This document shows positions 16,648-17,954 of a DNA stretch of 64,000 bases, piece after piece. Position numbers and translations under genes: made by a program. The notes beneath the pieces were generated by a model. The model was given only the letters and a program-made list of their open reading frames with translations. It was not told where the DNA came from and searched no databases. Within the stretch, counting starts at the first letter, position 1. Each line of letters opens with the position of its first letter. The stretch lies in assembly GCF_003334385.1 (NCBI RefSeq), contig NZ_QOWN01000026.1; one strand, 5' to 3'. The DNA is from Escherichia coli. GTDB lineage: Bacteria; Pseudomonadota; Gammaproteobacteria; Enterobacterales; Enterobacteriaceae.

Positions 16648-16691
16648 ACCCAGAAAAGGAGTTTCCCCTGGAACACATTTCTACTACTACG

Positions 16692-17954
16692 TTGATCATT
16701 ATTCTGATCATCATGGTGGTCATTTCAGCCTATTTTTCCGGGTCCGAAACCGGAATGATGACCCTCAACCGCTATCGTCTGCGACATATGGCGAAACAGG
16801 GTAATCGCTCGGCCAAACGCGTCGAAAAATTGCTGCGTAAGCCAGACCGCCTGATAAGCCTGGTGTTAATCGGCAATAACCTGGTCAATATTCTTGCCTC
16901 CGCGCTCGGCACTATTGTTGGGATGCGTTTGTACGGCAATGCGGGCGTGGCAATTGCGACTGGTGTGCTGACTTTTGTCGTACTGGTATTTGCTGAGGTA
17001 TTGCCGAAAACCATTGCCGCGCTGTACCCGGAAAAAGTCGCTTATCCGAGTAGTTTTCTGCTGGCTCCGCTGCAAATTTTGATGATGCCGCTGGTCTGGT
17101 TGCTGAATGCTATCACCCGTATGCTGATGCGCATGATGGGTATCAAAACCGATATCGTGGTTAGCGGCTCTTTGAGCAAAGAAGAGTTGCGCACTATCGT
17201 GCACGAATCACGCTCACAAATTTCCCGTCGCAATCAGGATATGCTGCTGTCGGTGCTCGATCTGGAAAAAATGACCGTTGATGACATCATGGTGCCGCGC
17301 AGTGAAATTATCGGTATTGATATCAACGATGACTGGAAATCGATTCTGCGCCAACTCTCCCACTCACCTCACGGGCGCATCGTGCTCTACCGTGATTCGC
17401 TGGACGACGCCATCAGTATGCTGCGAGTACGTGAAGCCTGGCGGTTGATGTCGGAGAAAAAAGAGTTCACCAAAGAAACCATGCTGCGCGCCGCGGACGA
17501 GATCTATTTTGTGCCGGAAGGTACGCCGCTCAGCACGCAGTTGGTAAAGTTTCAGCGCAACAAAAAGAAAGTCGGCCTGGTCGTCAACGAGTATGGAGAC
17601 ATTCAGGGGCTGGTGACGGTTGAAGATATTCTGGAAGAGATTGTCGGCGATTTCACTACGTCGATGTCGCCAACACTTGCCGAAGAGGTCACGCCGCAAA
17701 ACGACGGTTCGGTGATTATCGATGGCACCGCCAACGTGCGGGAAATCAACAAAGCCTTTAACTGGCATCTACCGGAAGATGATGCCCGCACGGTTAATGG
17801 CGTCATTCTTGAGGCACTGGAAGAGATCCCTGTCGCAGGCACCCGCGTGCGTATTGGCGAGTACGATATCGATATTCTCGACGTACAGGACAATATGATT
17901 AAGCAGGTAAAAGTTTTTCCTGTGAAACCGCTGCGCGAGAGTGTGGCGGAGTAA
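16692..17954 (+). CDS. yfjD: CorC/HlyC-family membrane transporter YfjD (CorB), with CNNM TM domain and CBS pair
   Basis: 420-aa track ORF from TTG at 16692; the true start is ambiguous (strong SD AAAGGAG at 16655-16661 is followed by an in-frame CTG at 16668). Confidence 0.85.
   Translation: MIIILIIMVVISAYFSGSETGMMTLNRYRLRHMAKQGNRSAKRVEKLLRKPDRLISLVLIGNNLVNILASALGTIVGMRLYGNAGVAIATGVLTFVVLVFAEVLPKTIAALYPEKVAYPSSFLLAPLQILMMPLVWLLNAITRMLMRMMGIKTDIVVSGSLSKEELRTIVHESRSQISRRNQDMLLSVLDLEKMTVDDIMVPRSEIIGIDINDDWKSILRQLSHSPHGRIVLYRDSLDDAISMLRVREAWRLMSEKKEFTKETMLRAADEIYFVPEGTPLSTQLVKFQRNKKKVGLVVNEYGDIQGLVTVEDILEEIVGDFTTSMSPTLAEEVTPQNDGSVIIDGTANVREINKAFNWHLPEDDARTVNGVILEALEEIPVAGTRVRIGEYDIDILDVQDNMIKQVKVFPVKPLRESVAE

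Follow-up and report, generated by a model that had tools for sequence, protein, structure and literature searches.

The window analysed here, a stretch of 64,000 nucleotides of the E. coli chromosome, carries the genes ffh, ypjD, yfjD, grpE and nadK in this order and raises a simple question: at which codon does translation of yfjD begin? Three candidates, a CTG, a TTG and an ATG, share one reading frame that ends at 17954 (Table 1). A sequence-only reading of this DNA had pointed to the motif AAAGGAG ahead of the in-frame CTG; the coordinates proved exact and the spacing amounts to six bases. The same reading described the TTG and the ATG, both in frame, as poorly spaced from any Shine-Dalgarno (SD) sequence. 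Indeed, the predicted pairing with the 3' end of 16S rRNA reaches -8.2 kcal/mol at the CTG versus -3.3 at the TTG and -2.1 at the ATG. No ATG, GTG or TTG occurs in frame between the upstream stop (TAA at 16575) and the CTG. AAGGAG as such is not enriched in the window, with 14 matches on both strands for 21 expected, so that the yfjD copy draws its weight from where it stands and how well it is conserved, and not from the simple fact that it occurs. The predicted RNA fold of the region 16625-16725 is no more stable than that of shuffled sequence (z = -1.2).

Table 1. Features around the yfjD start, in coordinates of the window
Feature	Position	Strand	Basis or remark
ypjD CDS	15856..16647	+	RefSeq start mapped from annotation; stop TAA 16645-16647; upstream gene of same operon
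Shine-Dalgarno (SD) AAAGGAG	16655..16661	+	predicted duplex with 16S rRNA 3' end, -8.2 kcal/mol
Spacer TTTCCC, six bases, between SD and start codon	16662..16667	+	read from sequence
CTG initiation codon of yfjD	16668..16670	+	RefSeq CDS start; homologous NTG codons; onset of codon periodicity
yfjD CDS, 428 codons plus stop	16668..17954	+	CNNM/CorB (HlyC/CorC family) inner-membrane transporter
TTG codon 9, internal Leu, formerly annotated start	16692..16694	+	-3.3 kcal/mol upstream, no SD
ATG codon 16, internal Met, start in some automated calls (413 aa)	16713..16715	+	-2.1 kcal/mol, no SD

For the K-12 gene, this question has already received an experimental answer. In the section "CTG start codon verification" of EcoGene 3.0 (PMC3531124), mutagenesis and fusions place the start of yfjD at the CTG. 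The earlier K-12 annotation had used the TTG at codon 9, and mutation of this codon left expression unaffected; the mutagenesis is given there as unpublished results of Dague and Rudd (PMC3531124). Current curated annotation agrees. The RefSeq yfjD of K-12 RP437 (WP_010723175.1, 428 aa) starts at the base equivalent to 16668, and the same CTG is the annotated start in all eight RefSeq E. coli records inspected, the most divergent ones included. Seven of these encode an intact YfjD of 428 aa, while the gene of O157:H7 EC4115 is marked as frameshifted. Thus EcoGene 3.0, GenBank U00096 and RefSeq WP_010723175.1 describe the same gene with the same codon as the window, which differs from the recorded K-12 yfjD in nothing relevant to the start and, in the protein, by the D91N replacement. 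The CTG start of yfjD has therefore been on record since 2012 at the latest and forms part of the standard annotation. Exact look-ups returned the 428-aa form from NCBI ("HlyC/CorC family transporter") and UniProt (YFJD_ECOLI), but also a 420-aa form beginning at the TTG on 389 contigs, for instance in Shigella sonnei Ss046 and E. coli O127:H6, and a 413-aa form beginning at the ATG on at least 1000 contigs. The start had been called ambiguous in the sequence-only reading; for curated annotation this is out of date, whereas it describes automated gene calls well, given how common the two shorter forms are. The names yfjD, b4461 and corB are not mentioned in the supplementary tables of the TetRP, INRI-seq and TRAINSPOTTER studies, and a paper on the MazF regulon lists yfjD only in its table of MazF-processed transcripts and is silent on the start.

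The neighbouring gene showed a discrepancy of its own. The ypjD frame opens at an ATG at 15781 (288 aa), while RefSeq uses the ATG at 15856 (263 aa), and both lengths are found under the name YpjD in public databases, so that a second start-site discrepancy adjoins yfjD. YpjD proteins of 263 and 288 aa also appear in the protein cluster (90% identity) that contains YfjD. It has the look of an artefact of the clustering, in which fused ypjD-yfjD gene calls may have formed the bridge.

The start region was then compared across species. DNA encoding the conserved motif FSGSETGMM was scanned in one genome per species, yielding at least 120 gammaproteobacterial loci; the scan loci together with the window and four E. 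coli records gave 124 sequences with enough upstream DNA, in which the codon located 22 codons upstream of FSGSETGMM was taken as homologous to the CTG. Salmonella and Klebsiella DNA fell outside this sample, and the taxonomic spread of CTG is sampled, not complete. At the homologous codon, TTG accounts for 85 of the matches listed from the 124 sequences, CTG for 13, GTG for six and ATG for one. In these listed matches, CTG is carried by six E. coli, E. albertii, four Enterobacter, Superficieibacter and one metagenome-assembled genome, and GTG by four Citrobacter, Pantoea stewartii and a Kangiellaceae genome, while the TTG homologues span Vibrionales, Alteromonadales, Cellvibrionales and Enterobacterales. 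The SAR86 genomes among the matches listed, which account for most of the ATG cases, have an ATG one codon upstream of the homologous position and no ypjD upstream. An in-frame stop lies two to seven codons upstream of the homologous codon in many of the species listed. Moreover, among the same listed matches, Vibrio and several other genera contain no other ATG, GTG or TTG ahead of FSGSETGMM. Since these species have no alternative start before the motif, the homologous codon must be their start.

A finer view was provided by 29 Enterobacterales sequences, in which three-base codon periodicity begins exactly at the codon homologous to the CTG. This codon ends in TG throughout and opens with T, C or G. 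In codons 2 to 9, positions 1 and 2 are almost invariant and nearly all variation falls on the third position. Upstream of the start, the sole conserved bases are AAGG at -12 to -9. The third-position variation setting in at codon 2 indicates that residues 2-8 are translated and under purifying selection. The additional N-terminal residues that the sequence-only reading had expected from a CTG start, EHISTTT at positions 2-8, are accordingly conserved through synonymous changes across the 29 Enterobacterales species. Use of CTG itself was found in Escherichia, Enterobacter, Superficieibacter and Raoultella, always together with the strongest SD (AAGGAG), and a pyrimidine-rich spacer ending in CCCC is common to all CTG-start lineages. 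For instance, the yfjD of Raoultella ornithinolytica, fetched separately, combines AAGGAG, the spacer TCCCCC and a CTG start with CTG as codon 9, and is annotated with 428 aa.

Within E. coli, the region is highly conserved. Of 5426 complete E. coli genomes, 4702 match the 56 bases 16645-16700 with an identity of 99% or more, and the comparison of the start codon in other strains, proposed from the sequence alone, revealed identical SD, spacer and CTG in four divergent E. coli genomes. The window and K-12 RP437 show two differences in 3501 bases around the yfjD start. One, at 16938 (A in the window, G in K-12 RP437), converts Asp91 to Asn and is the sole residue change in YfjD; the other, at 18473, lies within grpE. 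Over 16500-17000, no match among the 5426 complete E. coli genomes exceeds 99.8%, so that this exact 501-base sequence is absent from all of them. In O157:H7 EC4115, whose yfjD is labelled a frameshifted pseudogene by RefSeq, a one-base deletion equivalent to 17299 disrupts the reading frame some 210 codons in, and an extra C in the SD-CTG spacer (equivalent to 16664) extends it to seven bases. E. coli ChlosBP-23-1 carries a nine-base tandem duplication (TAACCCCAG) at the ypjD stop, equivalent to 16645-16653, which widens the ypjD-yfjD gap and leaves the SD and the CTG untouched.

These data can be set against the other possible starts. The earlier annotation would make the TTG at 16692 the start of a 420-aa protein and assign the CTG with its SD to an untranslated leader. 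TTG is a canonical start codon, it has the history of the K-12 annotation behind it (PMC3531124), and the 420-aa form persists in databases on the 389 contigs mentioned above. The domain organization of YfjD is equally compatible with it. Pfam detects CNNM (PF01595, residues 11-184, E = 1.7e-53), CBS (PF00571, residues 278-326, E = 2.8e-6) and CorC_HlyC (PF03471, residues 344-418, E = 7.5e-19), the domain set of the CNNM/CorB (HlyC/CorC) family with an N-terminal CNNM/DUF21 domain, a CBS pair and a C-terminal CorC_HlyC domain. Since CNNM begins at residue 11, it would stay whole in the 420-aa protein; this boundary excludes the ATG at codon 16 but fits the CTG and the TTG at codon 9 equally well. 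On the other hand, the TTG has no SD at a usable distance, the codons 2-8 preceding it vary in the manner of translated sequence, and its mutation did not affect expression (PMC3531124). Furthermore, codon 9 is TTG in Escherichia only and CTG or CTC in Enterobacter, Superficieibacter, Kluyvera, Pseudescherichia, Citrobacter and Raoultella, so it cannot be a conserved start. An origin of YfjD at the TTG is thus extremely improbable. Initiation at the ATG at 16713, wholly or in part, would yield 413 aa as the main product or as a second isoform; we regard this as very unlikely, although minor additional initiation there could escape an analysis of sequence. Such a start would cost the protein 15 residues, among them the greater part of the first transmembrane helix and the five first CNNM positions, and the ATG lacks an SD and sits in a hairpin stem of the predicted fold, itself not above the stability of shuffled sequence. 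It is the first ATG in frame, its Met is conserved in Enterobacterales, and automated annotation chooses it very often (at least 1000 contigs); among the matches listed, however, Vibrionales, Idiomarinaceae and others have no ATG at codon 16, which therefore cannot be the start of the family.

It could also be argued that SD and CTG are juxtaposed by chance, AAGGAG not being over-represented in the window, and that another near-cognate codon is used, such as the in-frame ATT present at codon 4 (16677). The probability of this is virtually negligible, because more than 100 species conserve a homologous NTG codon preceded by an SD. The ATT was rejected as a near-cognate start on its spacing, 15 bases from the SD, and its lack of conservation: many species carry ATC or ATA as codon 4, and Pantoea and [Erwinia] mediterraneensis carry GTT. 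Of the two options left by the sequence-only reading, the rare CTG start is therefore supported by mutagenesis, RefSeq and the present comparison, whereas an N-terminus shorter than annotated finds no support. Collectively, the published mutagenesis and the comparative data presented here show the position of the yfjD start.

We consider it very likely that yfjD is translated from the CTG at 16668 by SD-directed initiation with weak output, and that this codon is a T-to-C variant of TTG. According to this scheme, AAAGGAG would pair with the 3' end of 16S rRNA and set the CTG, six bases downstream, in the P site, where initiator fMet-tRNA would read it with a first-position mismatch. The resulting YfjD would begin with Met-Glu-His-Ile-Ser-Thr-Thr-Thr and count 428 aa. 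The TTG from which the CTG would derive is presumably the start ancestral to the gene family in Gammaproteobacteria. In E. coli reporters, CTG initiates at about 1-2% of the ATG level (bioRxiv 10.1101/063800), which suggests that yfjD output is low and dependent on its unusually strong SD; the weak codon would have been retained to keep levels of the transporter low. Among the matches listed, the mean predicted SD duplex is -8.2 kcal/mol for CTG, -6.0 for GTG and -4.9 for TTG starts. As the CTG starts belong to a small number of related lineages, shared ancestry may account for the association of CTG with a strong SD.

A second contribution to yfjD initiation could come from ypjD, the stop of which lies 20 bases upstream in the same operon. 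Ribosomes that finish ypjD probably add to the translation of yfjD, and the strong SD together with the proximity of ypjD may partly offset the weak CTG. Among the matches listed, 100 of 120 species loci encode a YpjD homologue immediately ahead of the yfjD homologue. Scanning of the interval 15600-18100 detected no promoter-like site on the coding strand, and three terminator-like matches for 2.6 expected, a chance level, with none in the ypjD-yfjD gap. The short gap, the conserved neighbour and the lack of a promoter or terminator between the two genes make co-transcription with some re-initiation plausible, although the scan, while consistent with co-transcription, is weak evidence for it. 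In Raoultella ornithinolytica, the ypjD-yfjD gap measures 118 bases compared with 20 in E. coli, which indicates that tight coupling to ypjD is not required for the use of CTG. This larger gap contains GC-rich inverted repeats that resemble a REP-type insertion; both the CTG and AAGGAG are still kept.

Non-canonical start codons are found in other E. coli genes. The AUU start of infC is autoregulated by IF3, and pcnB also starts with AUU. Both resemble yfjD in that an inefficient, non-canonical start limits expression. In infC, the weak codon acts as a sensor in a proven feedback loop, whereas any regulation of yfjD through its start codon is speculative. Another parallel is hda, a further chromosomal E. 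coli gene whose true start is CTG; as for yfjD, annotation had first settled on a canonical codon downstream, until conservation pointed to the CTG and mutagenesis proved it (PMC3531124). This likeness is drawn from the publication; the hda product, which regulates DnaA, is unrelated to YfjD and is encoded elsewhere on the chromosome. At the protein level, the predicted domain set of YfjD matches that of the CNNM/CorB Mg2+ transporters, such as Salmonella CorB and archaeal MtCorB (PMC8242095), and a published phylogeny groups YfjD with Salmonella CorB (bioRxiv 10.1101/2021.02.11.430706). This resemblance concerns the domains of the protein, not its start codon.

One mildly new point emerging from the comparison is the avoidance of ATG across the yfjD/corB family. 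Among the matches listed, loci that keep the ypjD-yfjD pair start nearly always with TTG, GTG or CTG, and with ATG in only two cases. TTG starts about 4% of genes in model bacteria. A weak start codon might thus be a selected, maybe regulatory, feature of the gene family and not an accident of E. coli, though we hold this to be unlikely. Low or condition-dependent production of a Mg2+ exporter could be what is selected. Near-cognate initiation is policed by IF3 and is less strict at high Mg2+ in vitro. Through this effect, a non-ATG start could tie synthesis of a CorB-type exporter to Mg2+ or IF3; that yfjD responds in this way to cytosolic Mg2+ or IF3 activity is speculation, as the data show avoidance of ATG only.

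For E. coli itself, the finding matters as a point of annotation only: the correct N-terminus of YfjD is MEHISTTT, and gene callers that disallow CTG starts shorten the protein by 8 or 15 residues, both forms being common in public data. With its start established by experiment and a comparative signal of great clarity, yfjD makes a good test case for start prediction. For the family, a weak start kept class-wide could offer a modest hint as to what sets the expression level of CorB-type Mg2+ transporters.
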